Of a stretch of 64,000 nucleotides of DNA, positions 20,516 to 64,000 are shown piece after piece. The stretch is taken from NCBI GenBank assembly GCA_977020255.1, contig CDROCS010002233.1, positions 186,001-250,000 of the forward strand. Direction: 5' to 3'. Every line of letters begins with the position of its first letter. Position 1 is the first letter of the stretch. The notes below the pieces were generated by a model that was given only the letters and a program-made list of their open reading frames with translations, made no database searches and was not told the DNA's origin. The translations under genes were made by a program, and so were the position numbers. The DNA is from Obrimoposthia wandeli. Its lineage: Eukaryota.

Positions 20516-20565
20516 CTGTCTACTGACAGTAGTGAGTAGATGCACTCCGCAAATTAGGAGCTCAC

Positions 20566-20811: not shown

Positions 20812-21249
20812 CTGATGTTATTATTATATTGCACAGCTATCTGAAATGCTGAGTATAAAAGAAACAATAAGTGATTTTAAAATATAAAAAACATTAGACC
20901 GTGTCGCTGGGCAAATATGGTTCACAAGATTGCAAATATTTTTTTAAAATTATAACAGGAAAATTTAGTAAAATTTGAAAATAAGAATTTTAAATTTTAT
21001 AAAAATGTAAAATATATAAAAGTAGCATAATTACATTTATTTTTAGAATTATTCAAATTTTATTTTATTTAAAGTTCCATCTTGACATTAGATTTATTTT
21101 CAATTTTCACCAAAACTGCATCAGAAAATTTGACTTATTTTTAAATTATCAATTGATTTTCTTTATGTATTTAAGGCTTCAAACTAAATATATCTACACA
21201 GTGATTTGTGTTTTTAAGTCGCTTTATCACATTTTCAGTTACTTTTTTA

Positions 21250-22449: not shown

Positions 22450-25400
22450 TGCACAATCTACACTCACTCTTCCAACAATCTATCAAAACTGAAGCAAATC
22501 TCTACGTAGAAACCATCTGAAACAGAAGTGAGTAATGCTATTATAGGTTTCTTTCTTTCTGCATCATTACTCTCTTTTTGAAAACTTGAACTTGTTGGCC
22601 ACTCTTTGATAGACATTCTGGTACATGTCATAACAATTTATTCTTATCACATTGAAATTCGTCACCTTATTCTTTCATTACCTTATTCTTATCACATTGA
22701 AATTCGTCACTGTATTTTGTTGAATTTTGTTGATACGGAACGTATCGCCATTGTTCAGGAATTGTGTCTTCTTGTAATCGTCCTACGCGATTAGCAACGA
22801 ATGTTTTATATCACCAGCTGGGTTGTTTTATCCACCAAAGAACGGTATAACTGTCCCACCAAAACACAACTGCCTTGTTGTTTTTCTTTGTCAATCGACT
22901 ACCTTCACATGCCACTATTAGCTCTAATCTTACCGACTTTAAAGGTGTAACTCTTGCTTTTGATGCAATTAGTCGAACTTTCACTTTATACAAATTGGTT
23001 TCTCGGATAAAAGATATGGCTCCATAAGCTTCAATAGAAACATCCACAAATAAATGTATCTTTGAAGCCTTGCCATCTGTTTTTATCAAGCAATTTTGAA
23101 TTTGAACCTCAATTAAAGCCAGACAACCTTTTATCCTATTTTAAATATCTTCTTTCAAAACGTTACTTAAACTGTCATCCTATCCACTTCCAGTTAATCA
23201 AATGTGCTGCATTATTATCTTAGCAACTATCACAGCAAGGTTTATTAATTCTAAAGGATCGAATATTCTGGTCAAATAACCTAAAAACTTTATCTTGGTA
23301 AATACATGGCCATCATTCAAATTTATTGAAAACGGAAAAACATTATGTGTCACTAGCCAGCTTATTCCTCAAGTTTTTTGTTATTATATTGAGCCTTCGT
23401 CGTGTATTTGTTGTCCACTGGCTCAATTCTCAAATAGTATGATTTACATCGTCATAATTGTTAATCCACTTCTTCGCCACCATTCCAACTTCTTTCCAAA
23501 CTTCAGTCAAATAATCTTTCAAACTTATTGCTTCTTCCACTGAGTTAATCAAATCTAACGTGTTGTCCATACCGGTTCTTCGTGAGGTTTGATTGAATGT
23601 AAAAGTATTTTCTCTCATCATTAACTCTGCTAACAATGGTGGCGTGTTAAATCCAAAAATAACTCTTTAATATTCATAAATCCACAGTTTCCCTTCGTTA
23701 TTCTGTCACAGAAATCTTAACCATATTCGGTCCTCTTGATTAACAACTATTTGCAAATATATTTCAGAAACATCAAACACTATAGCTACTTTTTATTTGA
23801 AACGAAAAAGTAACTTTGCCAAATTACCTTGTAGTTTAGGTCCGCATCTCATTTCTTTTTGCTACAGCTTCAAATTCGATACGAATCTTTGTGGTTTTTT
23901 ATGCATTCGGATAACTGGAAAGTGAAGCAAATATTTTTTTTGTATTTTCATCCTTTGATGCATCTACCACCTTTAAATATCCTTTCTCTATTTGGTTATC
24001 GATTAAAAAATTATATTCTCTCTGCAAAAATACATCCTTATTTCGTCGTATATACAAACATTCCTATCTATTTAATACAAAACTTTTAACTTAGGAGTAA
24101 TTTATTTTATTTTGTTTCCACGGTATTTTAATTGAGTACTGCCAATCTACTCTCGTAAATGACTTAACCGTTGAAAGATATATCTATCTATCGGTTTTAG
24201 ACATCTCAAATTCGTCATTGTCATTATTTTCTCAAAATCTTCTTGTTTGAACGTCAAGCTCAATATTTTTTGAAAATGCGTGAATGAAATTTGTTTATCT
24301 ACGCATTTTTATCCTAGTGGAGTTAATCTGGCTACAGAATCATCTCGATTTCAAACGATTTTATTAATTGACCATTGTAGTTCAAATTGGTCAGTATTAA
24401 GGATTATATAAATTTAACTGTATTTTTCTATCGAAGATTTTAGATGATTCCAATTTCTTGCTGCATCTACCCAATCTATTTAAATCGGCTGCACCTTTTT
24501 TAACAACAAAACATTTATAAATCTCCTTATCTGTCTAATATAACTTTGAATTTTGCAGTTTACCTCCTTACAAATCATTACCTTATTTCTTCCTCCAATC
24601 GTTCCAATATACATGGACTTCATGTAGTCTTTTAAATATAGATAGTCAACAATCTTGTCACTAATAAAACTGGCTGTACTGATTTTTACAACTTCTGTAA
24701 CTTCTTAAGTGAGATATCTCATGTCCATCAACATATTTCCTCGACTTGTAATCGTTAACGTTAACCCTGTATAACAGCTAATGATGTTTGAAGATACATC
24801 CTTATTTTTAACAAAATTTTGTATGTCTACAAGCTTTACCCAATCAGCATTTTTTAAACAAACCTTACAGATACCCATATTTTTTATCCAATTTATTCTT
24901 TTTTCTACTTTTATTAGCTTTCATTTTTTGCACTGATCAGTATATGATAAGTTAAATATTTGTTTAAGTTCATGGGATTTTGACACTGGGATTCTGTATT
25001 TGCAGCTAAACTTGAAGACCGTGCGTTTTCTAGAAGCGCACCCAATTGAACCACTGCAGTCTCTTCAAGGTGTCACTAGATGCCACACAGCGCCAGCCAC
25101 CGGCGATCCTTGGCCATCCCTAACCACAGACATATAGGAACGTGCTGCAGCACCACTTTCACTGGCTATCATCAATTCACCATCTCTGTCAGTATCGAGT
25201 GCGGTACAGCCGCAGTCTATGTCAACCCCTTTGCAAGCCCAGAGGTTACCTTACCGCTTTTTGGTAAGGGGCCCTGACTCAGGGCTTAACTGGAACTCAT
25301 TCTTCATACTCTTCAGGATATGTTTATAATGGCCCCTCGCTACTTGGCACGCATCTATTTCATCTAACCTCGCTGAACAAGCTTAAGCCCCAAACTCAAT

Positions 25401-32859: not shown

Positions 32860-33130
32860 CAACTCTATTCCGAGCAAATCTATTCCGAGCAATTCTATTC
32901 CGAGCAATTCTATTCCGAGCAACTCTATTCCGAGCAATTCTATTCCGAGCAACTCTATTCCGAGCAAATCTATTCCGAGCAATTCTATTCCGAGCAATTC
33001 TATTCCGAGCAATTCTATTCCGAGCAATTCTATTCCGAGCAATTCTATTCCGAGCAATTCTATTCCGAGCAACTCTATTCCGAGCAACTCTATTCCGAGC
33101 AACTCTATTCCGAACAACTCTATTCCGATA
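32860..33130 (+). repeat. 15-bp minisatellite CAA(T/C/A)TCTATTCCGAG, ~18 copies
   Basis: Read directly; it explains the periodic spurious ORFs (AILFR / SNSIP / YSEQF). Confidence 0.95.
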
Positions 33131-33144
33131 TCAGTAATTAAAGG

Positions 33145-33600
33145 TATAAATACCGCAAAAGTTGAAATTTGCCTTCAATTTAGTAAAAGTTTACATTGTA
33201 ACATTGTTGATATAAAGTTGAAATTTGCCCTCAATTTAGTGAAGTTTTACATTGTAACATTGTTGATATAAAGTTGAAATTTGCCCTCAATTTAGTGAAG
33301 TTTTACATTATAACATTGTTGATATAAAGTTGAAATTTGCCCTCAATTTAGTGAAGTTTTTTGCATTATAACATTTGTTGATATAAAGTTGAAATTTGCC
33401 CTCAATTTAGTGAAGTTTTACATTATAACATTGTTGATATAAAGTTGAAATTTGCCTTCAATTTAGTAAAAGTTTGCATTATAACATTGTTGATATAAAG
33501 TTGAAATTTGCCATAACATTTGTTGATATAAAGTTGAAATTGTCTTCAATTTAATAAAAGCTTTGCATTATAACATTTGTTGAGATAAAGTTAAAGTTGT
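33145..33600 (+). repeat. ~57-bp tandem repeat GTTGATATAAAGTTGAAATTTGCCCTCAATTTAGTGAAGTTTTACATTATAACATT, ~8 copies
   Basis: Read directly. Confidence 0.92.
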
Positions 33601-40449: not shown

Positions 40450-42110
40450 AAAAAAGCTACGAAAGACGATATGACGAAAATATATGAAAGGTATTTTGAA
40501 AAACTAACAACCGATTTTGGAAATAACAATTCAGAATTTTCTTGAGTCAAATAGCGACAATCAGTCTTCCAGCATATTTAACTGCGATGTACAAATCGTG
40601 TTTCCATCAGAAATGCTGCAATCCCATATCCAACTGATGTGCAGAATGTGAATTTAAATGTAGAACGCAGCAATGATCCAGCTGAATGGGATTTGAATGC
40701 TGAAACTATTAATAATTTTGCCAAAAATACTCCATAGCAAATGGTTAAATAATCAGAGGAAGCTGGTTAATTTATTTCCCTTCGTCGGGAAAGTGTTTTG
40801 TTATGTTTGCAAGCTTTTTAGTACTCCCGTTCAATGTAGTAAACAATTTAAAACGAGATTTGATGATTATAAAAATGCTGTTGTAAGAATTAATGTCCAA
40901 GAAAAGTCAAAAGATCACTTAGGTGTTCTTTCAACTATGGTAGAGTGTAGCAAGTCTAATCGCATTGATAGTCAGCTTCAAGACTTAAAAAAACATGCAA
41001 GTACTGAATTGAATTTTTGAAAAGAATTGTTAATGTAATATAATTTCTTGTTGAGTGTGGGCTTGCTTTCCGTGGAGATAATGAGTTGCATTTTAACAAA
41101 GATAATAGGAAATTTCTTGGTTGCATTGAACTTGTGGCTGAGTTTGATCCTTCACTCAAAGAACATGAAAAGGAAATGTTATAATCTTTCTTCCACAATT
41201 TGCAATTAATTTATTGAAAATTGGGCGAGAAAGTATTGCAACAAATAGTATCGGAGATAAAGGAAGCTAAATATTATAGAGTTAGCTTCGGTTCTACGCC
41301 TGATGCTGGCAATATGCATCAGCTGTAATTTATTATAAGATACGTATTTCAGAATGGAAATGTGATTGAGTGTTTTCTTAAATTTATTCCAATTGAACGT
41401 CATGATGGAAAATTCCTTTTCAACATACTACAAAATAATTTGAATCATCACGGAATTGATATCAATAACTGCAGATCACAATCACATGACAACGCAAGTA
41501 GTATATCCGGGATTTATTCTGGCGTACAGACAATATTACGAGAAGTGAATAAACTAGCTTAATGGGTACCATGTTCTGCTCACAGTCTTAATTTGGTTGG
41601 AGTAGCTGCTGCAGAATGCTGCTCAGAGGCAGTTAAATGTTTTTGGATTTTTACAATCGGTATACACCTTTTTACATCTTCAAAAGATGGTTAAAATTAA
41701 AAGTAAACATGAGAGATAAATCTTTAATCGTTCAAAGTTTAGCATAACCGAGATGGTCAGCACAAAGCGATGCTGTTAAAGCATTTCATACGAACTATTT
41801 TGAAATTTGTCAGACATTACTAGACATTGCTGATTGCAAGCATCGACCTCCAGCTGTTGCTCATTTGGCAAATTCGTTAGCTAAGAAATTTAATAATCTT
41901 GCAACAATATTAATGAGTTGGATATGGAGTGATTGCTTGAAAATATTTTGCCTGGTTTAGAAGTATGCACTATAATTAAATTATGCGATGGTCTTATTTT
42001 CCATTTTATTGAAGTATGAAATAAATTGGGCGAGTTTGAAATCAATGCAAAAAACTGTCGTTATCGGAATACAAAAATCAACTCAAATGATCCCGAAACA
42101 ATTTTTTGAT
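40450..42110 (+). mobile_element. hAT (ZMYM1-like) transposase relic, 5' part, interrupted by a Polinton
   Basis: FLVECGLAFRGDNE...FLGCIELVAEFDPSLKEH; IECFLKFIPIE; CRSQSHDNASSISGIYSGVQ; WVPCSAHSLNLVG. Confidence 0.85.
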
Positions 42111-45100
42111 AGTAGGTAGAAGGATGGAGTCTAGATCACTTGACCCCTACCCCTCCCCTCCTCCCTAAAGGGTGTCACACCATAAGGATGTCTTGCCACA
42201 CCATACGGGTATATGTTGCCTCACCTCCGGCAATTTGAACTCTTCCACAAAGGAATCATCCAAATTTGTTGGATAAGCTGCTACCAACTCTTTTGCTTTT
42301 TAAGCTTGTCAATAATCGTATAGAATGAATTTATTCGGAAATTTTCACAGACCTTGGCTTGATTCTGAAATATCAGATTCATCAAAAGTAGGTAGAAGGA
42401 TGGAGTCTAGATCACTTGACCCCCCCCCTAAAGGGTGTCACACCATAAGGATGTCTTGCCACACCATACGGGTATATGTTGCCTCACCTCCGGCAATTTG
42501 AACTCTTCCACAAAGGAATCATCCAAATTTGTTGGATAAGCTGCTACCAACTCTTTTGCTTTTTAAGCTTGTCAATAATCGTATAGAATGAATTTATTCT
42601 TTCACAGACCTTGGCTTCTGAAATATCAGATTCATCAAAAGTAGGTAGAAGGATGGAGTCTAGATCACTTGCTAAAGTGTGTCACACCATGTCTTGCCAC
42701 ACCATACGGGTATATGTTGCCTCAATCGTAGCGAACTCTTCCACAAAGGAATCATCCAAATTTGTTGGATAAGCTGCTACCAACTCTTTTGCTTTTTAAG
42801 CTTGTCAATAATCGTATAGAATGAATTTATTCGGAAATTTTCACAGACCTTGGCTTGATTCTGAAATATCAGATTCATCAAAAGTAGGTAGAAGGATGGA
42901 GTCTAGATCACTTGACCCCCCCCCTAAAGGGTGTCACACAAGGATGTCTTGCCACACCATACGGGTATATGTTGCCTCACCTCCGGCAATTTGAACTCTT
43001 CCCACAAAGGAATCATCAAATTTGTTGGATAGAAGCTGCTACCAACTCTTTTTTTTTAAACCATAATCGTATAGAATGAATTTATTCGGAAATTTTCACG
43101 AACCTTGGCAGTTACCGAGCTATCAGATTCATCAAAGTAGGTGAAAGGATGGAGTCTGAATCCTTGACCCCCCCTAAAAGTGTCACACCATAAGGATGTC
43201 TTGCCACACCATACGGGTATATGTTGCCTCACCGCCGGCAATTTGAACTCTTCCACAAAGGAATCATCAAATTTGTTGGATAAGCTGCTACCAACTCTTT
43301 TTGCTTTTTAAGCACATCCAATAATCATATAGAATGATTTATTCGGAAATTTTCACAGACCTTGGCTTGATTCTGGAAATATCAGATTCATCAAAAGTAG
43401 GTAGAAGGATGGAGTCTAGATCATTGACCCCCTAAAAGGGTGTCACACCATAAGGATGTCTTGCCACACCATACGGGTATATGTTGCCTCACCTCCGGCG
43501 TTTGAACTCTTCCACAAGGAATCATCAAATTTGTTGGATAAGCTGCTACCAAACTCTTTTGCTTTTTAAGCTTGTCAATAATCGTATAGAATGAATTTGT
43601 TCAGGAAATTTTTCACAGACCTTGGCTTGATTCTGGAAATATCAGATTCATCAAAAGAAGTAGGTAGAAGGATGGAGTCTAGATCACCGACCCCCCTAAA
43701 GGGTGTCACACCATAAGGATGTCTTGCCACACCATACGGGTATATGTTGCCTCACCTCCGGCAATTTGAACTCTCCCACCAAGGCATCAGCCAAATTTGT
43801 TGGATAAGCAGCTACCAACTCTTTTGCTTTTTAAGCTGGTCAATAATCGTATAGAATGAAGTTATTCGGAAATTTTCACAGACCTTGGCGATTCACCGAA
43901 ATATCAGATTCATCAAAAGTAGGTAGAAAAGGATGGAGTCTGAGATCGCCCGGCCCCCCCTAAAGGGTGTCACACCATAGATTCTTGCCACACTCTTGTT
44001 AAATTGCCTCACCTCCGGCAATTTGAACTCCTTCCACAAAGGAATATCCAAATTTGTTGGAAGGACCAACTCTTTTGCTTTTTAAGTCTAATCGATAGAA
44101 TGCGTTGTTTTCAAAATTTCACAGACCTTGGCTTGATTCTGAAATATATCAGATTCCAAAAGTAAGGTAGAAGGATGGAGTCAGATCACTTGACCCCCTA
44201 AAAGGGTGTCAACCATGGGATGTCTTGCCACACCATACGGGTATGTTGCCTCATGGCAATTGCCTCACAAAGGAATCACATCAAATTTGTTGGATAAGCG
44301 CTACCAACTCTTTTTGCTTTTTAAGCTTGTCAATAATCGATAGAATGAATTTATTCGGAAATTTTCACAGACCTTCTTGATTCTGAAATATCAATTCATC
44401 AAAAGGGTAAAGAAGGATGGAGTCATCACCCCCTAAAAGGGTTCACACCATGTTCTTGCCACACCATACGGGTATATGTTGCCTCACCTCCGCTTTTGCT
44501 CTTCCACAAAGGAATCATCCAAATTTGTTGGATAAGCTGCTACCAACTCTTTTGCTTTTTAAGCTTGTCAATAATCGTATAGAATGAATTTATTCGGAAA
44601 TTTTCACAGACCTTGGCTTGATTCTGAAATATCAGATTCATCAAAAGTAGGTAGAAGGATGGAGTCTAGATCACTTGACCCCCCCCCTAAAGGGTGTCAC
44701 ACCATAAGGATGTCTTGCCACACCATACGGGTATATGTTGCCTCACCTCCGGCAATTTGAACTCTTCCACAAAGGAATCATCCAAATTTGTTGGATAAGC
44801 TGCTACCAACTCTTTTGCTTTTTTAAACATCAATAATCTTAGAATAGTTGTTAATTTTCGGAAATTTTCACAGACCTTTAAAATATCAGCTCAAAAGTGC
44901 GATGAGAGAAGGATGTCAATAATAAAGGGTGTCACACCATAAGGATGTCTTGCCACACCATACGTATAGAATTTTGAACTCTTCCACAAAGGAATCATCC
45001 AAATTTGTTGGAAAGCTGCTACCAACTCTCTTTTGCTTTTAAGCTTATTCGTATAGAATAGATTTATTCCGAAATTTTTCACAGACCTTGGCTTGATTCT

Positions 45101-48100
45101 GAAATATCAGATTCATCAAAGTAGGTAGAAGGATGGAGTCTAGATCTTGACCCCCTAAAGGGTGTCACACCATAAAGGATGTCTTGCCACACCATACGGG
45201 TATAGCACTCACCTCCGGCAATTTGAACTCTTCCACAAAGGAATCATCCAAATTTGTTGGATAAGCTGCTACCAACTCTTTTGCTTTTAAGCTTGTCAAT
45301 AATCGTATAGAATTGAATTTATTCAGGAAATTTTCACAGACCTTGGCTTGATTCTGAAATATCAGATTCATCAAAAGTAGGTAGAAGGATGGAGTCTAGA
45401 TCACTTGACCCCCTAAAAAGATGTCACACCATAAGGATGTCTTGCCACGGGTTTGCCTCACCTCCGGCTTAATTTGGGCTCTTCCTGAGAATCTCTTCAC
45501 AAAGAATTTGTTGGATAAGCAAATTTGTTGGATAAGCTGCAACTAAACATCAATAATCATATGGAATGAATTTATTCCCAAATTTTCACAGACCTTGGCT
45601 TGTTCACAAACTATCAGCCCACACCATACGAATTTTATATATTGCCTCACCTCCAGGAGATTGTTGGATAAGCTGCCACCATCTTTTGCTTTTTAAGGTC
45701 AATATGTATTTTCACAGACCTTGGCTTGATTCTGAAATAATTTGGGTCTAGATCCTTGACCCCCCTAAGGGTGTCACACCATAGGATGTCTTGCCACACC
45801 ATACAGTATATATTTCATTATTGGATCAGCTGCTACCAACTCTTTTTGCTTTTTAGCTTGTCAATAATCGTATAGAATGAATTTATTCGGAAATTGGCAT
45901 TCAAAGTAGGTAATGTGACCCCCTAAAGGGTGTCACACCATAAGGATGTCTTGCCACACCATACGGGTATATGTTGCCTCACCTCCGGCAATTTGAACTC
46001 TTCCACAAAGGAATCATCCAAATTTGTTGGATAAGCTGCTACCAACTCTTTTGCTTTTTAAGCTTGTCAATAATCGTATAGAATGAATTTATTCGGAAAT
46101 TTTCACAGACCTTGGCTTGATTCTGAAATATCAGATTCATCAAAAGTAGGTAGAAGGATGGAGTCTAGATCACTTGACCCCCCCCCTAAAGGGTGTCACA
46201 CCATAAGGATGTCGTTGGACACCATACGGTTAAAAATTGCCTCACCTCCGGCAATTTGAACTCTTCCACAAAGAATCATCCAAATTTGTTGGATAAGCTG
46301 CTACCAACTCTTTTTGCTTTTTTAAGCTTGTCAATAATCGTATAGAATGAATTTATTCGGAAATTTTCACAGACCTTGGCTTGATTCTGAAATATCAGAT
46401 TCATCAAAAGTAGGTAGAAGGATGAGTCTAGATCCTTGACCCCCTAAAGGGTGTCACACCATAAGGATGTCTTGCCACACCATACGGGTATATGTTGCCT
46501 CACCTCCGGCAATTTGAACTCTTCCACAAAGGAATCATCCAAATTTGTTGGATAAGCTGCTACCAACTCTTTTGCTTTTTAAGCTTGTCAATAATCGTAT
46601 AGAATGAATTTATTCGGAAATTTTCACAGACCTTGGCTTGATTCTGAAATATCAGATTCATCAAAAGTAGGTAGAAGGATGAGTCTAGATCTTATTTCCC
46701 TAAAGGGTGTCACCCATGGGATGTCTTGCCACCATAATTTATATGTTGCCTCTGCCTCCATGTTTGAACTCTTCCACAAAGGAATCCATTGTTGAAGGAC
46801 CAACTCTTTTTGTTTTTAAGCTTGTCAATAATCGTATAGAATAGATTTATTCGAAATTTTCACAGACAGCTACGAAATATCAGATTCATCAAAAGTATAG
46901 AAGAGTGGAGTTGAATCATGACCCCCTAGGGGTATGCACCTAGGATATCTTGCCACACCATACGGGTATATGTTGCCTCACCTCCGGCATTTGAACTCTT
47001 CCACAAAGGAATCATCAAATTTGTTGGATAAGCTGCTACCAACTCTTTTTGCTTTTTAAGCTTGTAATAATCGTATAGAATGAATTTATTCGAAATTTCT
47101 AGACCTTGGCGATTCTGAAATATCAGATTCATCAAAGTAGGTAGAAGGAATTGGAGATCTCTGAATCTACTTGACCCCTAAAAGATTGTCACACCATAGG
47201 TTATCTCTTGCCACACCATACAGGCTGTTGCCTCACCTCAGCAATTTGAACTCTTCCACAAAGAATGTCCAAATTTGTTGGATAAGCTGCTACCAACTCT
47301 TTTGCTTTTAAGCTTATCAATAATCGTATAGGCCAATTTATTCGAAAATTTTCACAGACCTTGGCGATTCTGAAATATCCAGATTCATCAAAAGTAGGTA
47401 GAAGGATGGAGTCTGATCACTTGACGGACACCATTGTCTCCACAGGGTACCTACACCTCCGGCAATTTGAACTCTTCCACAAAGGAATCATCCAAATTTG
47501 TTGGATAAGCTGCTACCAACTCTTTGCTTTTTTAAGCTTGTCAATAATCGTATAGAATAATGAATTTATTCCGGAAATTTCACAGACCTTGGCTTGATTC
47601 TGAAATATCAGATTCATCAAAAGTAAGGTAGTAAGAAGGATGGAGTCTAGATCACTTGACCCCCCTAAAGTGTGTCACACCATAAAGGATGTCTTGCCAC
47701 ACCATACGGGTATATGTTGCCTCACTCCGGCGAGGTTGAACTCTTCCACAAAGGAATCGCCAAATTTGTTGGATAAGCTTGCTACCAACTCTTTTGCTTT
47801 TTAAACTGTCAATAATCGTATAGGAATAGAATTTATCTGGAAATTTTCACAGACCTTTGGCTTGATTCTGAAATGTCGATTCATCAAAAGTAGGTAGAAG
47901 GATGGAAGTCTCAGATCACTTGACCCCCCTAAAAGGGTGTCACACCATATGATGTCTTGCCACACCATACGGGTATATGTTGCCTCACCTCCGGCAATTT
48001 GAACTCTTCCACAAAGGAATCATCCAAATTTGTTGGATAAGCTGCTACCAACTCTTTTGCTTTTTAAGCTTGTCAATAATCGTATAGAATAGATTTATTC

Positions 48101-51100
48101 GGAAATTTTCACAGATCGGCTTTCAGATTCTGAAATATCAGATTCATCAAAAGTAGGTAGAAGGATGGAGTCTAGATCAGTTGACCCCCCTAAAGGGTGT
48201 CACACCATAAGGATGTCTTACACACCATACGGGTATATGTTGCTGACCTCCGGCAATTTGAACTCTTCCACAAAGGAATCATCCAAATTTGTTGGATTCT
48301 TTCTACCAACTCTTTTGCTTTTTAAGCTTGTCACATATCGTATAGAATGAATTTATTCGGAAATTTTCACAGACCTTGGCTTGATTCTGAAATATCAGAT
48401 TCATCAAAAGTAGGTAGAAGGATGGAGTCTAGATCACTTGACCCCCCCCCTAAAGGGTGTCACACCATAAGGATGTCTTGCCACACCATACGGGTATATG
48501 TTGCCTCACCTCCGGCAATTTGAACTCTTCCACAAAGGAATCATCCAAATTTGTTGGATAAGCTGCTACCAACTCTTTTGCTTTTTAAGCTTGTCAATAA
48601 TCGTATAGAATGAATTTATTCGGAAATTTTCACAGACCTTGGCTTGATTCTGAAATATCAGATTCATCAAAAGTAGGTAGAAGGATGGAGTGTGATCCAC
48701 ACCCATAGGTCTCCACACCATACGGGTCTTGCCACATTTGTTTCCCACAGGTCATGTAAGCTGCTACAACTCTTTAAGCTTGCTCGTAAGCGGCAATAAT
48801 CGTATACTCTTTTGACAAAGGATCGGAAAAATTTCACAGGACCTTGCTGCTACCAACTCTTTTGCTTTTTAAGCTTGTCAATAATCGTATAGAATGAATT
48901 TATTCGGAAATTTTTCACAGACAGCTTGATTCTGAAATATCAGATTCATCAAAGTAGGTAGAAGGATGGAGTCTAGATCACTTGAAGCCCCCTAAAGATT
49001 GTCACACCATAAGGATGTCTTGCCACACCATACGGGTATATGTTGCCTCACACTCCGGCAATTTGAACTCTTCCACAAAGGAATCATCCAAATTTGTTGG
49101 ATAAGCTGCTACCAACTCTTTTTGCTTGCTTTTAAGCTTGTGTCCAATAATCGGCGTATAGAATGAATTTATTCCGGAAATTTCACAGACCTTGGCGATT
49201 CTGAAGCCATCAGATTCATCAAAGTAGGTAGAAGGATGGAGTCTAGATCACTTGACCCCCCCCCTAAAGGGTGTCACACCATAAGGATGTCTTGCCACAC
49301 CATACGGGTATATGTTGCCTCACCTCCGGCAATTTGAACTCTTCCACAAAGGAATCATCCAAATTTGTTGGATAAGCTGCTACCAACTCTTTTGCTTTTT
49401 AAGCTTGTCAATAATCGTATAGAATGAATTTATTCGGAAATTTTCACAGACCTTGGCTTGATTCTGAAATATCAGATTCATCAAAAGTAGGTAGAAGGAT
49501 GGAGTCTAGATCACTTGACCCCCCCCTAAAGGGTGTCACACCATAAGGATGTCTTGCCACACCATACGGGTATATGTTGCCTCACCTCCGGCAATTTGAA
49601 CTCTTCCACAAAGGAATCATCCAAATTTGTTGGATAAGCTGCTACCAACTCTTTTGCTTTTTAAGCTTGTCAATAATCGTATAGAATGAATTTATTCCAG
49701 GAAATTTTCACAGACCTTACAGGCTTGATTCTGAAATATCAGATTCATCAAAAGTAGGTAGAAGGATGGAGTCTAGATCACTTCTTGACCCCCCTAAAGG
49801 GTGTCACACCATAAGGATGTCTTGCCACACCATGCAGATTTATATGTTGCCTCACTCCGGCAATTTGAACTCTTCCACAAAGGAATCATCCAAATTTGTT
49901 GGATAAGCTGCTACCAACTCTTTTGCTTTTTAAGCTTGTCAATCATAGAATGAATTTATTCGGAAATTTTCATGGCTTGATTCCTGATGAATTAGGTAGA
50001 AGGATGTCTCGACTTCAAAGACACTCATAAAGGTCTTGCCACACCATACGGTATATGTTGCTCACCTCCGGCACCTTCCACAAAGGAATCTTATCCAAAT
50101 TTGTTGGATAAGCTCTACCAACTCTTTTGCTTTTTAAGCTATATCAGAATGAATTTATTCATTTTCAAACCTTGGCTTGATTCTGAAATATCAGATTCAT
50201 CAAAAGTAGTAGAAGGATGGAGTCTAGATCACTTGGACTTCCCCAGCGTGTCACAAGGATGTCTTGCCACACCATCGGGTATATAAGCACCACTCTCCGG
50301 CAATTTGAACTCTTCCACAAAGGAATCATCCAAATTTGTCTTACCAACTCTTTTGCTTTTTAAGCTTGTCACACCATAGAATGAATTTATTCGGAAATTT
50401 CTCACAGACCTTGGCTTTGATTCTACTATCAGATTCATCAAAAGTAGGTAGAAGGATGGAGTCTAGATCACTGACCCCTAAAGGGTGCGTCACACCATAA
50501 GGATGTCTTGCCACACCATACGGGTATATGTTGCTCACCTCTGCAATTTGAACTCTTCCACAAAGGAATTATCCAAATTTGTTGGATAAGCTGCCAACAA
50601 CTCTTTTTGTTTTTGCAGTTTGTCAATAATCATATAGAATGAATTTATTCGAAATTTTCACAGACCTTGGCTTGATTCTAAATATCAGATCATCAAAGTA
50701 GGTAGAAGGATGGAGTCTGATCTTTGACTTCCCCTAAAGGGTGTCACACCATAAGGATGTCTTGCCACACCATACGGGTATATGTTGCTCACCTCCAGCA
50801 ATTTGAACTCTTCCACAAAGGAATCATCCAAATTTGTTGGAAAATCTGCTACCAACTCTGTTGCTTTTTTGCTTGTCAATAATCGTATAGAATAATTTAT
50901 TCGGAAATTTTCACAGCCCTTGGCTTGATTCTGAAATATCAGATTCATCAAAAGTAGGTAGAAGGATGGAGTCTAGATCACTTGACCCCCCTAAAGAATG
51001 TCACACCATAAGGATGTCTTGCCTACAGGGTATATGTTGCCTCACCTCTTTAATTTGAACTCTTCCACAAAGGAATCATCCAAATTTGTTGGATAAGCTG

Positions 51101-51270
51101 CTACTACAACTCTTTTGCTTTTTTAAGCTTGTCAATAATCGTATAGAATGAATTTATTCGGAAATTTTCACAGACCTGGCTTGATCTGAAATATCAGATT
51201 CATCAAAAGTAGGTAGAAGGATGGAGTCTAGATCACACCACCCATAAGGATGGTCTTTACGAGTTGCTCT
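42111..51270 (+). repeat. ~263-bp tandem array, roughly 35 units
   Basis: Clean units start at 48409 and 48672. Each unit is the reverse complement of 52857-53117 plus a CAA link. Confidence 0.95.
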
Positions 51271-51399
51271 CACCGGAGGTGAGGCAACATATACTATGGT
51301 GTGCAATACATCCACTACACCACAGGGAAGGAAGGGAGGGGGAGGCGGAGGGAGTAGAGGGTCAAGTGATCTGGGACTCCACTTCTTTGATACTTCCTT

Positions 51400-51900
51400 A
51401 AGAAGGGGTCAAGTGGCTTGTCTCCACTTCTTTTTTGTGATATATCACTATGAAAGGTCAAGTGGCTTGATCTCCACCCTTCTTTTTGTGATATATCACT
51501 ATGAAAGGGCCTCAAGTGGCTTAGTCTCCACCCTTCTTTTGTGATATATCACTATGAAAGGGTCATGGCTTAGTCTCCACCCTTCTTTTTTTGTGATCTA
51601 GTCTCACACCCTTCTTTTTTGTGGTCTAGTCTCCACCCTTCTTTTTGGCTAACTACTAATTCAAAGGGGTCAAGTAGCTTAGTCTCCACCCTTCTTTTGG
51701 CTAACCACTAATTCAAAGGATCAAGTGGCTTAGTCTCACCCCATACTTTTGTGATCTAGTCCATAATGAAAATTTAGGATAAAGTTCACTCTTATCAGTT
51801 AAGAATGTATGACGTAATCATATTAATACAATATTTTATGAAATTTATACTAAAGTTCACTCTTATCAGTCAGAATGTATTACGTAATCACACACATACT
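51400..51900 (+). repeat. Family B subterminal tandem repeats (~50-bp AAGGGGTCAAGTGGCTTAGTCTCCACCCTTCTTTTTGTGATATATCACTATG x~8; ~78-bp AAAGTTCACTCTTATCAGT x2)
   Basis: Units are diverged versions of the TIR motif GGGGTCAAGTGATCTAGACTCCATCCTTCT. Confidence 0.85.
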
Positions 51901-52024
51901 ATTCTATGTGAAAATTTAGATCAAAGTTTTTTTTTCCAGGCTTACACATCTAAAGAATTATGGTAAAATTTATTTAAATAACATAAATTATATATTAAAA
52001 ATAAAATATCCTTAATAAATATAT

Positions 52025-52477
52025 TTATATACAATTTACATAATCAATACATAGAGAAAACATTTCAAATAAGCACAATGTTTTCCGTGTTTTCTAAACG
52101 GACATCGAATATTTTTTGGCATTTTCTTTAAATTTTGAAACTTTTATTATAATTCACAATTCTCAAATTTAGGAAACATTCGTTTCACTAAATTAATTTT
52201 TCTTTCCATCAATAGAATCCATAACATAGAATATTGTTTCAACATCATCAATATGAATATCAGAGCTTTCACCTTCAAACCAGGATAACTGATGATGATG
52301 ATTTATCAAATATAGATTTTTCTTTTTAACTGTAAATGATAAACTACTCCATGGTATTTGATTTTTAAACACGTAATGAAATGGACAAGTCATATCATTC
52401 ACATACATTATACATAATTCCTTTGGAATATATTCTCCATTATTATCAATAAAACATTCTAAATCAATAAAAGCCAT
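52025..52477 (-). pseudogene. Polinton accessory ORF, DEDD-like nuclease pattern, frameshifted near 52200
   Basis: MAFIDLECF...IPKELCI...FHYVFK...HHHQLSWFEG. It continues in another frame to CPFRKHGKHCAYLKC, with a stop at 52025. Confidence 0.5.
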
Positions 52478-52528
52478 TTGAAAAAATAAAATGAAATACT
52501 ATAATGATATATTTGTTTATACTTAAAA

Positions 52529-52860
52529 TTATTTGTGTTGAAGTTTCAACCATAAAAGACTCAGAGGTCCGCAGTTTTTAGTTAATGGATTCTGACATTT
52601 AACTCGATTATAGTAGACTAGAATGTTTTCTTTTTCAAGTGTAGACACCAACTTTGAAGGATAATAGAATCCAAAAGGATCAAACACTCGAATCTCGAAT
52701 CTGTCAACAAATATTGCTATCCAATGTTCGCCTGGTAGATTTGAAGTATGAGTATTGATAATGTAGCCTCCGGGTTTTAATGATGGAATTTTATCCAATG
52801 AATATACTCCATTAAATTTGTTATTCAATAATATTTTTCCGGATTTATAAATTTCTCCGG
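52529..52860 (-). pseudogene. Adenain-like cysteine protease (Polinton PRO), N-terminus truncated by fusion to the TIR
   Basis: FNGVYSLDKIP...IINTHTSNLPGEHWIAIF...FDPFG...CQNPLTKNCG contains the catalytic H, D, Q and C. The first ~20 aa of the tracked ORF are TIR-derived. Confidence 0.88.
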
Positions 52861-52964
52861 AGGTGAGGCAACATATACCCGTATGGTGTGGCAAGACATC
52901 CTTATGGTGTGACACCCTTTAGGGGGGGGGGTCAAGTGATCTAGACTCCATCCTTCTACCTACT

Positions 52965-53532
52965 TTTGATGAATCTGATATTTCAGAATCAAGCCAAGGT
53001 CTGTGAAAATTTCCGAATAAATTCATTCTATACGATTATTGACAAGCTTAAAAAGCAAAAGAGTTGGTAGCAGCTTATCCAACAAATTTGGATGATTCCT
53101 TTGTGGAAGAGTTCAAAAATTTATGACGGAAAAATGTTGGGTTCTGAAATGGTTACCGAACAAATAAAAGAAAATGCGTTCACCAGTTTCCCAAACGTTC
53201 ACGTCGCGTTGAGAATTTACTTGCCCCTAATTGGTTCAAATGCTGAAGCAGAACGACCTTTCTCAAAACTTAAAATAATTAAGAACTATTTGTGTATGAA
53301 TATCGGGCAAGAAAAAATAGCATCACAAAACTTTCAATTGAAAGTGCTTTATTAAAATAAATGTCTTTTGAAATGTAATATTTGAATTTGCAAATAAAAA
53401 GAGCCGCAAGGTTCGGATTTTGTGAAATATTCCAACAAAAATATTTTACAATAAAAGTTGATTTAAAATATATTTTAATTTCGTAGGCCCTAGGACAAGT
53501 GCCTACTTTACCTTTAGACTAATCCGGTGTTG
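52965..53532 (+). mobile_element. hAT transposase relic, 3' part with dimerisation domain and probable right end
   Basis: FPNVHVALRIYLPLIGSNAEAERPFSKLKIIKNYL is the hAT C-terminal motif. A hAT-like end, GGCCCTAGGACAAGTGCC...TAATCCGG, follows. Confidence 0.85.
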
Positions 53533-54400: not shown

Positions 54401-55952
54401 TTTATTCATTTAGTAATTTTAAATAATCTCATATTTCTATTAAAGATTATTTTGAAAAAAATTTTAGTTAAATAAATAAGGTACAATATTAATGTGTAGA
54501 GGCCAACTTTTGTCAGTTAAACTTACAATGTAGTTTCTCTGACAATTTTTGTTTCTAACCTCGGCGTAAAACTGATTTTTTACATTTTTATAATTATTAC
54601 ATAAAGCCGATGTCACCGCCGTTCTTCCAACACTACGCCACTGCCGATTGCAAAGCCTCTAGATGTAAGGTCACATTGCTAACATAGATTTTCGTTATGT
54701 TATTATAAATGTAGTAATTATTACGTTAATAAACAATAGAGAGAAGTATTTAACGGTAATAAAATATTAACAATTTATTGATATTCAAGCATCATTAATA
54801 GCTGAAAGTATTATTTACAAATCGATAATAAATAAATATAAGTTTTGATGTTGAACAACTGAAGAGAATATCATTCCAGATTAGTTGTAATAATTGCATT
54901 ATTAACAAAAATATTAGAAAGTGGTAAAATTATGATTTAAGATGAAATAAAATAAAAATTTATTTTTAAATATTTTACATAAATACGGTATATAATTCTT
55001 AAAAATGATTCTAAAACATTTGCAGCAATTTTCTAACATAATCTCCTTCGTTTAAAATTTATATTGATTTATTTAATTTTTCTTATTCAACTTGACCAAT
55101 AAGAGCCGAATATAAATTTTGCACTTTTATGTGCGTACTTGTAAAGTCGATATGCATTGTTTTCAGATTTTAAGCGACGTGAATGGTAGTCAGTTGTGAT
55201 TTATGTAAATAAGGAGTTGAGTTTGGTATAGATATGGTTTCTCTTTGGTTGCGAAATTCTCTGTTAAATGTGAAAACTAAGGATTCAAGAAATGTACACA
55301 CCAAAATTGGTAGCAGCAGTAATACTACGATAGATGGACATATATACCGAAGTGATTAACATTAAGCTGTGTTGACCTTTATTTTGTCTTTTGCATTAAG
55401 GTCGACCATAAATCCAAAAGTCCTAATTCTCATTCAAGCCTCGCGTTTTCACAGAAAATTTTATATTGAAGTAAATATATATTTGAGTTTACTGTGTTAT
55501 TAAGTACAATAAATTAAATTGGAATAATCGATTCTGTTTTTCTGCATTGTATATTTTTATACCTGTTATTTGCAGACATTTGTAGATATATATTGAATAT
55601 ACTTATTTAATCCCTTTTTTATCATTCGTGTTATAGAAATTCCAGCTAAAACTCAAATCCTATTCTCAAAATCTCAATTAATGAAAAATTATTAAAGCAA
55701 AGTGAATTTATAAATATATAAAAATTGAGGTTTCATTATTAAAATAAATAAAATTAAAAAAACGGTTTTTATTATATAAGAAAGTACGTGTTGTGTTAAA
55801 CAATATGAAGTACAGTAAATATATTTCATTGTGTTGCTCGATGAAAGCCTTTCTTTACTAGTAAATTTTCCAGTAAATGGTTGTCATAGTGAGGAAACAA
55901 ATCGATTTGTTGCCGAGCTTATGGAGGGCTGTATTGACTGTAAAATGCTCAC

Positions 55953-56280
55953 CTGAAACACAGAGGTAAACATGGCGTCGTCCTTGAGAATAGTGCGGAA
56001 AAACTCCACCATAGACATTTCCTGGATGCTGTCATGACTTTTCTTGGCGTCGTATACCTTGAAGATGCGGTTGCGGAGTGTGGAGCGCGGAATGCCATAG
56101 AGAGCGGCTGCCTTGCGAGTACCGATACGACCACAGCAGATAGCTCGTACTGCTGAGATTAACTCTCGCTCTGAGTAGCCACTGGGGGCAAATGCGCCCC
56201 TCTTCTGGCTGTTGGTAACTGGGAGGGGCGGCGATTCCACTGGGGGACATCTGGCGGCACGAATGCGGTTAATAGAACTA
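55953..56280 (-). CDS. E93: E93-like exon containing HTH-psq 1
   Basis: YSERELISAVRAICCGRIGTRKAAALYGIPRSTLRNRIFK matches E93 RHF1 YTEEELQAALRDIQSGKLGTRRAAVIYGIPRSTLRNKVYK. Donor CAG|GTGAG at 55952. The 5' boundary is uncertain (56240-56280). Confidence 0.9.
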
Positions 56281-57429
56281 GGGTCATGATAAAATTATGA
56301 CAATCTAAACAATTGTAAGTCAAATCAACATCCTTAAACCTGTATGTAAACGTATGCATACGTAATTTCTAACACAACAATTAAAAAAAAATAATCAACA
56401 AAATGCCAATACCAAAGAGCTGCTTCAAAACCAATAGGATTGACTAGAAAAAAGTTTTAAAAAAAACCCGAAATAAATAATAAATTATACCTAGAGTTCC
56501 TAGAAATGCATACCTACCATGTAGGCAAGTTGTTACATAAAATACAGCACCTGAAGTAGAAACTTTACAGACATAAACCTGCTCATATACTCAACCTCCT
56601 GCACCAATATAAATAAAAACCCAAAAAACAATTGTAAGAACCAAACCAACAACAACAAAAACCTATAATTTTGAGCATAAATTGAGTTAAAGAAAAAGAA
56701 AGAGCCAAATACAATGAAAGAAAAGAACCTAAAAGGGGATACCTTATCAACAACATTAGAAGGAAAACCCAAAGAAAAATTTCTAAGATTGAAAAAAGAT
56801 CATAAAAACTTTAAATCTTTTTCAAAAACTCAGAAAAAATAAATAAACCAACCGGACATACAAAGACTTTGGTTTATATTATTGGAATAATTTCCCGTTT
56901 GTCTCTCACCTTATAAATTAAAAAACCTAACCAACAACAACAAAATAATAAAAGAAAGAGAAAACTTAACATTAAAAAAACTTAGTAGTGGTTTTCAAAA
57001 TGCTAACAAAAAACAACAAAGAATGAACCGAAGCAGACAACACTGCTAGCAGAAACATCATGAAAACGTCATACAATGAACAGAAACAACTCTTTTTTAA
57101 ACTTAAATAATCAAAAGACTTTGAAAACATAATAAGAAATTTAACTAAAAGTAATTTTTAATTATCATTTAAATTACAATCAAATATTTTTAAATAAATT
57201 AAAACCCACTAACTTTTAAAAATCAAATTTTATTCTTTAATTCCACAATTTTTTTTATAAACTAATTAGCTATCAAAACTTTAGCTCGCTAAAAAGTAAT
57301 TGTTTATGCTTAAATACCACAAATTTTAGAAAAGAGAAGAAAAACCACCGGAAGATGAAAAAAAAACCCTCTTATTTTTGGGCCGAAACCAAATTTTCAA
57401 TCTCATAAACTTAAAAATAAATACTAAAC

Positions 57430-59512: not shown

Positions 59513-60299
59513 AGTAGGTGGATGTGTCCGGTCTAATCCAGTCTAATCTTTAAAAAAATAGCATACCTAGCTTTGATTTTAATTGAAGGAATGTAGAAGG
59601 AATAGATAAAATGCTTAAATATTGGCTTTGGAACGATAATATTGATGACTTCGATAAAACTCTCTTTGAAAATAACTTATTTACTATGTATTAATGAAAT
59701 CGTTAATTTTCATTCAATGTCTTAATATTAATTGATTAAAAGTATTTTTTAATGTCTAATGAAGATAGAATCCATTTATATGAACCAAAACTATTAATAG
59801 TAATCATAAAGATTTCACCCGATTTTTTATAAAAATATGATGACTTTATCAATACTCAGAAGTTGTTTCTTTAAGTTTTCCTTAATACCTATTGACTTAT
59901 AAGTAGCTATTTACAACATCATTGATTATTTTCAACTATAAAATCAATAATTGGGAATATGTACACTAATCGTTATTACTCAATATCTAACCTAAACCTC
60001 TAACTTCTAATACTCTAATTCTAATATTCTAATTCTAACACTAACATCATTTTCCAAAATATATGCGAAAAATTTACAAGAAGAGGGTAAAAGTTTGAAT
60101 AATATCTCTGCTTTTGTAAAAATTGTCTTCGTTATGACCGAAATATGAGTAAAATACTTATGATTAATTTTTGGTATAACTCGCTTTGAAGCAGTATAAA
60201 GCTGAAATTCAATATGATCGCTTATATCATAATCTTAAATGACCGGAATTTTGATAAAATACGATTTCACTACAGTTTTAGAACAGTAGTCTTATTTCC

Positions 60300-61300: not shown

Positions 61301-62620
61301 AAACCTTATAAACACCCATGTCATATCTCATCTAAATGTAACAAATCTCATGCATCTTCTTTATTTATCTTATAGAACCTTTTATGTATAATTTCTTTAC
61401 TAGACCGATTTATTTGAAGTAAGAAATCGACTGGTTGTTGATGTTTGAAAATAAGTTTCCATAATATTGATAACATCAATGAATCAATAAGCTTGTAGAG
61501 TTTTGTAAGAATTTTCTTGTTTGATATATCGATCAATGAAAAATTATTTTTGAGAATATAGTTATCAATAGACTCAAGTAATATGAATAAATTATGACTG
61601 AGATAAATACATACTCTAAACATTATTGAATAAATTATATCAATAAATGATACTTGAAAATAATTTTAGGTTTAAATGAATCGAAAGAGAGAATATAATT
61701 TAATCCATTTCTAGTCCTGATGTAATAATTTCTAAACAAAATGTTCTTATATAGTATTGATAATTTAATTAATTATTTATTACATAGATTAATTTCCTTA
61801 AATAAGCTAATCTTCAAACAATATTCTTTGAAACTAATCATTTTTAGTAACAAAACTTTTACAGATTCTTTTACAAAAAAACTTTTTTAAAAGAAAGTAG
61901 AGAACATTTTAGATTTAATGAATCATTTTGAAATTTAATAAAATTCTTAGTTAAAGATGCAGATTAATAATATACTCTTGATCGTAAATTGACTAATTGA
62001 TCAAAGTAATCTCTCTAATTATCCGTATAATTGTCCGTAATAAACTCTCACTTATTGATCATTATATACTCTCTTCAAATTATATCTTTATTACACGGAG
62101 GAATCCTTTAAATATGTTGAAGAGAAATCCAATTAGTGCATCTACCATATAAGAAACCATGAAAACTTTATTGACGCGCTGGCACATAAGAATCGTCAGT
62201 AAATACAACTTATTTGTTCTGAAAATAATTTTGTCCTTAAACTAAAATCAAAGAAAATTTATAGAAATATGGGTAAATTCATTGAAAATGATCAATTATT
62301 TGCATTATAATTTGCATTATTCTAAAAATCCTTGGTAAATCTATCTTATAATCTATAAATTGACTGAAAATCGAACTTTCTAATTCGAAATTTACATTAT
62401 TCAGAAAAATTACACAGTAAATTAATTTGTCAACTAAAATCCTTATAAATGATATAAGATTCAACTTTGCATCTTAATTTACATTATTCTGAAATATACA
62501 CGATAAAATGTATTCTAAAATCCATAAATATAAACATAAAATGATTAAAAATCTAACTTTTTATATCCAAATTAGAATTTTTTTCTAAAGTGTCATAATG
62601 TAGACGTGTAAGCTACACTG

Positions 62621-63046
62621 TTGTCTGCAATGATTTCAGATGGATTATTAGACACATCAAAATTTTCTATAAACCATCCTTTAGCCAATACTGCGATAGA
62701 CAAGTTTAAGGATGAGAGTAAGCAATGTAGATATAAGCAATGGGTATTTTTACGCTCCAAATCATATAGCTTAGAAACTATAGACGGAAAGTCCCATATG
62801 AAAGCAAAGGGAATTAGTGTTAAGCAGACTGTGCTACGCCATGCGAATTATTTAGCTGCATATGAGAGTGGGGTTAGTGAACGAGTGCAACAACAACGCA
62901 TTAGTTCAATTAATCACCAGCTCTATATCGTAAATAGGAGTAAGATCGCATTGAGTAGCAATGACGATGAGAGAAAATGGGTAGAGAAAAACCGGTCAGT
63001 TGTCTGCGGACATCATAGATATCCAGATGATTTTTCACTTGAATAA
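62621..63046 (+). pseudogene. Polinton protein-primed DNA polymerase B, C-terminal fragment
   Basis: HPLAN...KFKDE...VFLRSKSYSL...KAKGI...LRHANY...ISSINHQLY...KIALSSNDDERK...GH fits the Polinton pPolB C-terminus. AATAAA follows at ~63112. Confidence 0.88.
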
Positions 63047-63406
63047 TTGTTTTTTGTATGTTTGAATTTGTATGTCACAAATTTATTGTACCTAATTTTC
63101 TCTTTGGTTTAATAAATATTTGTATCCAATTCATCTTTTTCTAAGTTTAAAATTCTAAAGTATAAAAGTTCTGTGTAAAATTTTAATTCTAAAGTATAAA
63201 AGTTTTGTGTAAAATTATTTTTTTAAATTATAAAAATTGTTGTAAAAAATTATGTTGGAAATTTTATTTTTAAACTATAAAAATTTTGTAAACAATTTTA
63301 TTTTAATTTTTAAATTATTTTGTTTAAAAGCCATTTTTTTTAAATTTTTTATTTTTTTGTTTAAAAACCATGTTGAAAATTTTAAATTTTGCGCAAAAAA
63401 ATTGCG

Positions 63407-64000
63407 TCTTATTCAAATAATTTTTGTAATGTTTTTTCGTGCCTGTAGATCAAGAATGAAGCCCGCCCCGAAGGGGCGGGTGGTGTATGTTAGGGTCTTG
63501 GGTATGACACGGGTCGTTTACATGTGTAGTTGTGAGAGGTAAAGTGATACTGTAGCGCATGTTTTTGTAGTTATTTTCACGAGAATGGAGCCCGCCCCAA
63601 GGGGCGAGCGGTGGGTGGAGTGTTTCGGTGGTGTTGTTTGTGGTGTGGCGTGGTGTGGTGTGGCTTGGTGTGGTGTGGTGTGGTGTGGTGTGGTGTAGAG
63701 AATAGAGCCCGCCCCAAAGGGGCGGGTGGTTGTCGGTGGGTGTTTCCATCCAACACCCGTCGACTTTCACCCATCACCCGAGGTAGTCAGTGATATACAC
63801 GAGAGCGAGACATCCGTACATCGCCAAGCTAGTCTGTGACCTATATGAGAGCGAGACATCCGTACATCGCAGAGCTAGTCTGTGGCCTATATCAGTCCAG
63901 AGCCCTTCGCGCCTAAAGGCGCGAAAAATTGTTAGGGGGTACCCCCCTTGTCCTTTAAAACCGTGCATGTGTGTGGAGTGAAATTTCACCCCACACACCT
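63407..64000 (+). repeat. Family A right TIR, with GC-box hairpins and a (TGGTG)n expansion at 63640-63695
   Basis: Collinear with 787-1450; homology ends inward at TCTTATTCAAATAA. Confidence 0.88.

Follow-up and report, generated by a model that had tools for sequence, protein, structure and literature searches.

How can a tandem array arise from one end of a transposon together with the adjoining host DNA, and come to lie in inverted form inside the opposite end? The question is raised by a Polinton-like remnant (42111-52964) in a 64-kb window, the whole stretch of DNA analysed. Within the left end of this element, TRF, unit search and wrap-around alignment identify an array of 36-37 head-to-tail units of 263 bp (42231-51272, plus strand), which amounts to 9.0 kb of a single monomer, with TRF scores (1474-3917) far beyond chance. 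Each unit consists of a 3-nt junction, CAA, followed by 153 bp of the right flank in reverse complement, including the target duplication, and 107 bp of terminal arm with a short C run. The only source copy is the 261 bp at 52857-53117, which comprise the right arm, the target duplication and the flank. Its reverse complement gives 37 successive unit matches from 42234 to 51243, and wrap-around alignment divides the array into 36 segments, or 35.8 unit lengths. The cleanest unit (42231-42493) differs from the source solely in a C run of 9 bases rather than 10. The array sits between arms 1 and 2 of the left palindrome, and no further copy of it was found elsewhere in the 64-kb window.

These results bear out the initial annotation, which had described about 35 head-to-tail units of about 263 bp between the left palindrome arms, the same composition of terminal arm, CAA and reverse-complemented flank with its target duplication, and a source that is single in the window. 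Its deduction that the array is specific to the locus and postdates the insertion also holds, since each unit carries the target duplication and the flank of that same insertion. The term "satellite", however, overstates a 9-kb array at a single locus, and the copied half-termini would at most be candidate origins and integrase sites.

To which family does the element belong? A 6-bp target-site duplication is a trait of Polintons/Mavericks, and the end motif of vertebrate elements is (AGT)2 or (AG)3 (PMC8097293). Here TTTGAT is present on both sides, at 42105-42110 on the left and at 52965-52970 on the right, and the element ends, AGTAGG, match five of the six bases of (AGT)2, a consensus taken from vertebrate elements. 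A second terminus family in the window also begins with AGTAGG. Outside the array the element measures 1.8 kb and has two gene fragments, both on the minus strand. One (52529-52850), which has lost its 5' end at the right-terminus junction, resembles Adenain/S273R-like cysteine proteases: it has weak matches to Peptidase_C5 in Pfam (E 0.004) and to protease S273R in the PDB (6lj9, E 0.003), and 16 homologues of 44-58% identity, three of which carry PF00770. The adenovirus-like protease typical of Polintons/Mavericks thus appears to be represented by a gene without its 5' end. The other (52193-52498) is a small conserved protein of an unnamed family, broken by an early stop, with 95 relatives at E<=0.001 (best 3.7e-17); none of the eight relatives scanned gave a Pfam family. 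No gene for a protein-primed polymerase, integrase, ATPase or capsid was found in the 1.8 kb. The element is classed as a Polinton-like remnant and not as an intact member of the family.

The insertion lies in what may be a decayed hAT-type transposase fossil, which extends on the left from approximately 40500 to 42104 (plus strand) and on the right through the duplication and flank at 52965-53117 (plus strand). The reading frames on the two sides are compatible across the insertion. This tentative identity comes from motifs familiar from hAT transposases and from weak Pfam matches: DUF4371 at 41329-41559 (E 0.07, below the Pfam cut-off) and Dimer_Tnp_hAT just past the right flank (E 0.013-0.028). 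None of 46 candidates among longer proteins proved to be a homologue of the hAT fragment.

The terminal inverted repeats are identical over 108 bp apart from a C-rich tract. Arm 1 on the left (42111-42230, plus strand) is a long C-rich variant of 120 bp that ends at the palindrome centre, CCGG, and has 12 extra bases in this tract relative to the right arm. Arm 2 (about 51273 to 51400, plus strand) is a long G-rich variant and is noisy, aligning to arm 1 with 99 matches, 10 substitutions and 28 gaps. The only two G4-like motifs in the 64 kb lie in these left arms, at 42144-42165 (minus strand) and 51325-51352. Folding of the noisy arm region gives a z-score of only -2.6, and an Rfam search returned no hits. 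Next to arm 2 are subterminal tandem repeats of 53 and 71 bp (51402-51928, plus strand), which are gap-rich like the array. The right arm (52857-52964, minus strand) has 108 bp, a 10-base run and only half of the palindrome, being cut 4 bases past the hairpin centre. Of the five element ends in the window that could be assessed, three show rearrangement at the hairpin centre or close to it.

Do the differences between units reflect evolution or reading? Among the alignment columns of the array, 6.7% are deleted, 2.7% inserted and 2.2% substituted. Singletons make up 136 of the 167 distinct substitutions, neighbouring units share two where shuffling predicts 3.5, and outside the C run there is no fixed difference from the cleanest unit. 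The C run itself was measured in 27 units and has 4-7 bases in 20, nine in six and eight in one, never the 10 of the source; shrinkage of homopolymers reaches 35% in the 9-base run. The singletons, the lack of sharing between neighbours and the shrinkage exclude evolutionary divergence as the origin of the differences. Duplication at the level of assembly is excluded as well, since the errors are independent in each copy and an assembler cannot create independent errors in every copy. CpG transitions are somewhat raised (0.031 versus 0.013 per base, over only 8 CpG columns), and some real divergence or methylation miscalls could be responsible. In five other arrays of the window, gaps between copies amount to 0-1.7%, with one 57-mer pair at 5%. 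The differences look like raw nanopore error, the initial annotation having already noted a likeness to raw long-read error, and the copy number therefore probably rests on one read or molecule.

The array is, however, a patchwork of raw and error-free stretches, a feature that had escaped the initial annotation, as had the reduction of the element to a remnant lacking polymerase and integrase and the truncation of its right terminus. There are seven error-free runs of at least 200 nt, where about none is expected. Eight of the ten runs of at least 90 nt cross the novel junction, with 44-263 nt on each side, and five of the ten exceed the 261-bp source copy in length. The longest (42111-42599, plus strand) comprises the left arm and 369 nt of array and crosses two novel junctions. 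At 35 passages through the junction, both sides are perfect for 60 nt in seven and one side only in five; interior columns behave alike. The novel junction is no barrier to correction, and error-free patches over it call for accurate reads that contain it.

Which starting material could yield such patches? Polishing was simulated with a BLAST-based stand-in of our own making and an assumed pipeline. When the short reads lacked the array, all 19 runs gave at most one run of at least 200 nt, at most one crossing run, and none longer than 227 nt. With an array of 35-36 copies, the longest run exceeded 260 nt in nine of 12 simulations and at least two crossing runs appeared in 10 of 12; low-copy simulations (5 and 2 copies, six runs), kept apart from these 12, were intermediate. 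The best simulation reached four long runs and six crossings against the seven and eight observed, so that a full match was never attained. Other outcomes concern the C run. When the draft contained an accurate source, a real array of 35-36 copies overwrote the source run to 9 in six of six runs, contrary to the 10 found in the window. A gap-fill layout with a planted accurate left edge kept the 10 in five of five runs and produced new interior patches in none of the five. Reads from other copies of the family, with no array, yielded two to six nine-base runs in seven of seven simulations, so the 9-base run alone is not decisive. Taken together, the array is probably real.

How, then, was it made? 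We favour, with somewhat better than even confidence, a very young, locus-specific array produced by host DNA repair at the fragile palindrome of a dead Polinton-like remnant. As the sequence shows, the element inserted into the putative hAT fossil and was then reduced to 1.8 kb by an internal deletion, one breakpoint of which falls at the right hairpin centre. The left hairpin, with its arms of about 120 bp and G4-like tracts, may next have suffered a break or a stalled fork that was patched with 260 bp copied from the right end, which lies at a distance of 1.7 kb and would have been kept near by arm homology. A founder unit flanked by direct repeats of the arm would result from a single non-homologous junction, the CAA join, together with a single return via the common arm. 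Such a unit would have been amplified about 36-fold, either as a 263-bp loop-out copied by rolling circle or through successive rounds of out-of-register repair next to the persisting hairpin; because the copies are identical, the route of amplification is not readable from the array. The assembled array would be one raw nanopore read, patch-corrected by accurate reads containing the junction. The rearrangement of three of the five ends and the restriction of the G4-like motifs to the left arms speak for this reading. The novel junction, GCAATTTGAA, is present in 23 of the 36-37 noisy units, and two alternative junctions sought in the array were not found; one fixed non-homologous junction argues for a single founder unit that was later amplified. 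The terminus retains its own target duplication; the junction is exact in 20 units and one base shorter in six. The only micro-templates for the CAA join are 5-base matches (GGCAA, at five places within the arms), suggestive at best, and two microhomology routes to it fit imperfectly. An integrase-made junction was rejected.

The main rival is a library artefact, in which the assembly took up either a single aberrant molecule or a chimeric concatemer produced by whole-genome amplification. The initial annotation had rightly raised this caveat, and the confinement of the raw-read error profile to about 42.6-51.9 kb speaks for it, as does the absence of divergence among copies, which is what an in-vitro product would show. 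The accessible part of one report documents inverted chimeras as well as amplification concatemers, in which one read contains a segment repeatedly (PMC10888933), and another describes, as far as its accessible text goes, how nanopore accuracy falls at inverted duplications, giving deletion-rich calls beside a palindrome (PMC7229812). The nanopore effect makes no copies, however, and neither phenomenon, as these sources present it, accounts for accurate patches that cross the junction. Both libraries would need to share the same artefact, which would itself require the strand to be switched twice, a join made without a template and, with no ligase present, 36 rounds that were all identical. 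Moreover, the window holds no other inverted duplicate of at least 90% identity and at least 100 bp, and an assembler cannot supply the independent errors. Deletion-dominated error and a non-palindromic unit also fit poorly with circular reads from missed adapters. We therefore regard an artefact as unlikely, if the most serious of the rivals.

Alternatively, a 263-bp circle might have formed at the right terminus by joining the hairpin centre to the flank, been rolled out as a concatemer and entered the left arm by recombination through the common arm. Circularisation and reinsertion have been proposed as a route to transposon arrays (PMC5932611, accessible part). This sequence of events yields one junction and uniform copies, explains why the first arm is the long variant, provided that the crossover took place within the final 65 bp of the arm, and agrees with the break of the right terminus 2 bases from the unit boundary. 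Against it, the source is intact, so that a sister or a copy must have supplied the circle, reinsertion targeted to a site at 1.7 kb adds a further rare event, and the last unit (63 matches, 39 gaps) is too noisy for typing; we consider it distinctly improbable. Less probable still is the model initially put forward, in which a break at the hairpin centre is repaired by homologous invasion of the right terminus that runs out into the flank and is reiterated, possibly by the element's own strand-displacing polymerase. The hairpin centre is involved, and every unit ends there, but the polarity is wrong. Both 3' ends at a centre break end in arm sequence, and pairing with the right terminus therefore extends into the element, not the flank; sequence inward of the right terminus occurs nowhere in the array. 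A copy that reaches the flank requires either a non-homologous junction or a switch that starts inside arm 1, on the opposite strand. Repeated independent template switching is made unlikely by the single junction, and the remnant encodes no polymerase, so that a role for such an enzyme would have to be in trans and is purely hypothetical. A fragment at 62612-63046, which we take to resemble a Polinton polymerase although it lacks a Pfam match, would indicate that such enzymes existed in the genome, but it belongs with a different terminus family, since the rest of the window matches the focal ends over only 33 and 17 nt, which is chance level.

Repair at the left hairpin, the preferred reading, has relatives among known processes. 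MMBIR/FoSTeS and polymerase-theta joining produce nearby-templated insertions, usually in one or few copies; an inverted insert at a hairpin, with a short join that lacks a template, resembles their products, whereas it is unusual for such an insert to give rise to a 36-fold array. Palindromes are known as fragile sites, and in rDNA-type expansion out-of-register repair lengthens repeats beside a fork barrier. The claim that the route is undescribed stands only in part. In the accessible text on maize Ac/Ds composite insertions, an element end and flanking host DNA are re-copied beside the element at bz1-m4-D6856, with three tandem repeats ascribed to rolling-circle replication and internal joins to NHEJ/MMEJ (PMC4270019). 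End and flank are likewise re-copied in tandem here. In that system, as there described, transposase acting on two termini starts the process, units are of kilobase scale and a new target duplication is made, whereas the present array has the native flank in every unit, a new join at the hairpin centre, a 263-bp unit and about 36 copies. A composite insertion by alternative transposition can be dismissed, as there is no new target duplication. According to the accessible part of a study of Drosophila, tandems of hobo, P, R1 and Bari1 expand by unequal exchange or rolling circle, and the hobo array (13-19 copies) is similarly young, confined to a single locus and derived from one founder, with the target duplication inside each junction (PMC5932611). 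The unit there is a whole element from a double insertion; here it is mostly host flank (153 bp) with half a terminus (107 bp from the element), inverted inside the opposite end, and this composition rules out a tandem of that kind. At eri-6/7 of C. elegans, terminal repeats of dead Polintons drive local rearrangements, namely inversions, deletions and one duplication via recombination between copies, and the accessible text notes no terminus-plus-flank array (bioRxiv 10.1101/2024.01.15.575659). In the literature searched, which covered few subscription papers, no report of a Polinton terminus-plus-flank or opposite-end array was found. The array is a single-locus variant of known transposon-plus-flank tandem arrays.

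The weight of the case is limited by its basis, which is one locus, in a remnant, read from the assembled sequence of one 64-kb window and from simulations. If real, it is a rare instance of a newborn array in which the single source copy, the junction of the founder and the relative age can all be seen, and rolling-circle and stepwise expansion could be told apart directly by comparing individuals. It suggests that DNA repair offers a simple way for new tandem repeats to arise. It is a speculative and improbable extension that the terminal palindromes of the Polinton lineage are recurrent break sites and, by pairing with the opposite end, regularly give rise to terminus-plus-flank arrays; were it true, this would be a general way for repeats to be born, each array bearing its own birthplace and relative date and being able to grow on beside the hairpin. 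At this locus, a real array would point to the terminal hairpins of Polintons as fragile sites that still rearrange host DNA after the death of the element.

The element at 42111-52964 is flanked on both sides by TTTGAT, and its left end is a terminal palindrome of arm 1 (42111-42230) and arm 2 (51273-51400) with a tandem array between them (42231-51272). The reverse complement of a single-copy source, 52857-53117, comprising the right terminal arm, the target duplication and right flank, matches 37 successive units at 42234-51243; when the array is instead aligned with wrap-around to its cleanest natural unit, the count is 36 segments, equal to 35.8 unit lengths. In this cleanest unit (42231-42493), CAA is followed by 153 bp of right flank, which contains the target duplication, and then by 107 bp of terminal arm; the unit is one base apart from the source, with a C run of 9 versus 10. 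At 45468-45988 and 48736-48806, several consecutive units are shortened, down to about 60% of full length; these resemble nanopore fast-translocation episodes and leave a margin of one or two in the unit count. The initial annotation, which put about 35 units with the target duplication inside the left palindrome, had described the array correctly.

What kind of element carries the array? Without it, only 1.8 kb remains: arm 2, 53- and 71-bp repeats, a broken gene, and a protease gene whose 5' end is missing. The broken gene belongs to an unnamed family of 95 relatives, and no Pfam family was found in the eight that were scanned. The protease gene has 16 homologues and matches Peptidase_C5 (E 0.004) and S273R protease (E 0.003). 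The right terminus has arm 1 only, fused to the protease gene 4 bases beyond the centre of symmetry. The six-base duplication, inverted termini and protease match features reported for Polinton/Maverick elements (PMC8097293) and fit such an identity. The element has no polymerase, integrase, ATPase or capsid gene and is therefore a remnant. The surrounding host sequence may be a decayed hAT fossil, for which a homologue search returned no homologue. The locus lies between three minus-strand frames matching HTH_psq (55884-56294, 20562-20876 and 16577-17125), and probably sits in an intron of a transcription factor gene, putatively E93/LCoR-like. The window also contains a Pao-type retrotransposon peptidase fragment (22811-23140, minus strand; Pfam E 7e-11) and, at 19025-20097, a perfect, 100% identical 537-bp tandem duplication, either a very recent event or an assembly duplicate; an 82% inverted pair (18200-18757 / 19981-20520) overlaps this duplication with one of its arms.

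The array is noisy, with 88.4% of columns matching, 6.7% deleted, 2.7% inserted and 2.2% substituted (8.8%, 3.6% and 2.9% for the three error classes outside the long clean patches). Such a profile has the appearance of an unpolished nanopore read. Singletons make up 136 of 167 substitutions, and adjacent copies share 2, compared with 3.5 when the order is shuffled. The 9-base run has lost 35% of its bases; outside it, no column differs from the reference in at least 40% of copies. Gaps amount to 6.2% in the repeats right of arm 2 and to 0-1.7% in five other arrays of the window, with one 57-mer pair at 5%; clean, adjacent arrays of 15 bp (18 copies) and 56 bp (6 copies) at 32860-33599 served as low-gap controls. 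Nanopore accuracy is reported to drop beside inverted duplications (PMC7229812). CpG transitions, at 0.031 versus 0.013 per base over only 8 columns, lean away from a reading of pure nanopore error.

Is the array real? Amplification concatemers are on record (PMC10888933), but no near-perfect inverted duplicate of at least 100 bp was found elsewhere in the window. Within the noise are seven error-free runs of at least 200 nt, where about none are expected. Eight of the ten runs of at least 90 nt span the novel CAA junction, with 44-263 nt on each side, and five exceed the 261-bp source. Correction is as continuous at the junction as at interior columns (both sides 7, one side 5, neither 23). 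Of 27 units, 20 have a C run of 4-7 bases, six have one of 9 and one has 8; none has 10. Short-read polishing was simulated on random sequence laid out as in the locus, the counted runs excluding one initial simulation and six low-copy runs. When the short reads lacked the array, none of 19 runs gave more than one long patch or more than one crossing, the longest error-free run being 227 nt. When they carried 35-36 real copies, the 12 runs yielded between 1 and 4 long patches and between 1 and 6 crossings, and the longest error-free stretch was 218-437 nt. Several outcomes count against a real array: the observed seven patches and eight crossings were matched by no simulated run, the source C run was changed to 9 in six of six array runs with an accurate source, an accurate left edge kept the source run and lost the interior patches in five of five, and reads from other family copies alone produced 9-base runs without any array in seven of seven. 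Overall, the array is likely to be real in vivo, its copy number perhaps depending on one molecule.

How did the array arise? On the plus strand, with A for the arm, the order is flank-A-[CAA-flank'-A]n-A'-inner-A'-flank. The initial annotation proposed a hairpin-centre break, invasion of the right arm and a possible role for the element's own polymerase. After such a break, A terminates both 3' ends and extension from pairing with the right A' runs inward; inward sequence occurs nowhere in the array. The annotation's observation is borne out, and its interpretation only in part: the polarity of homologous pairing is wrong and the element has no polymerase. Given the polarity, the founder would have needed one non-homologous join, CAA, and one return through the arm. 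An integrase-made junction is excluded because the terminus retains native flank. The left end may have started synthesis 153 bp beyond the right terminus and then copied towards the centre. Alternatively, a strand running leftward may have switched arms, continued into the flank and rejoined the apex. Nearby look-alikes of the CAA join are only 5-base. The junction reads GCAATTTGAA in 23 of 36-37 units; this single junction type, with the single C-run length of the corrected copies, points to one founder unit that was amplified afterwards. Amplification could have proceeded by rolling circle or by out-of-register repair next to a persisting hairpin, which identical copies do not separate. Past the polarity check, we infer these founder and amplification steps.

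The window contains a second terminus family built in the same way, with an arm, a centre and another arm followed by tandem repeats. Its Polinton-like remnants lie at 622-1540, 13740-14520, 59513-59545 and 62612-64000; the ends begin AGTAGGTGG, with palindromic termini and 46-47-bp subterminal repeats. Presumably 62612-63046 is similar to the C-terminus of a protein-primed polymerase; a Pfam search of it gave no hit. Five ends are assessable (focal left, focal right, 1540, 14520 and 59513), the end at 64000 leaving the window. The hairpin centre or its vicinity is rearranged in three, one is whole and one retains about 30 bp; the 14520 end terminates close to the hairpin centre. The only two G4-like motifs of the window (42144-42165 and 51325-51352) are both in the left terminal arms, and the right arm and array units have a plain 9-10 base run in their place. 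These motifs are a possible extra stall signal.

Related arrangements are known. In maize, element-plus-flank tandems formed via rolling circle are described, with three copies and started by transposase (PMC4270019). Some transposon arrays described in Drosophila derive from a single founder, with the target duplication at every junction (PMC5932611). In C. elegans, inversions and duplications are driven by what is left of Polinton termini (10.1101/2024.01.15.575659). The published literature searched, judged mostly from listings, yielded no Polinton terminus-plus-flank array and no inverted placement at the opposite end. It is improbable that such array birth is a recurrent route. The array is probably real and newborn, a single-locus feature carried by the remnant of a dead Polinton-like element, and is probably a variant among the transposon-derived tandem repeats.
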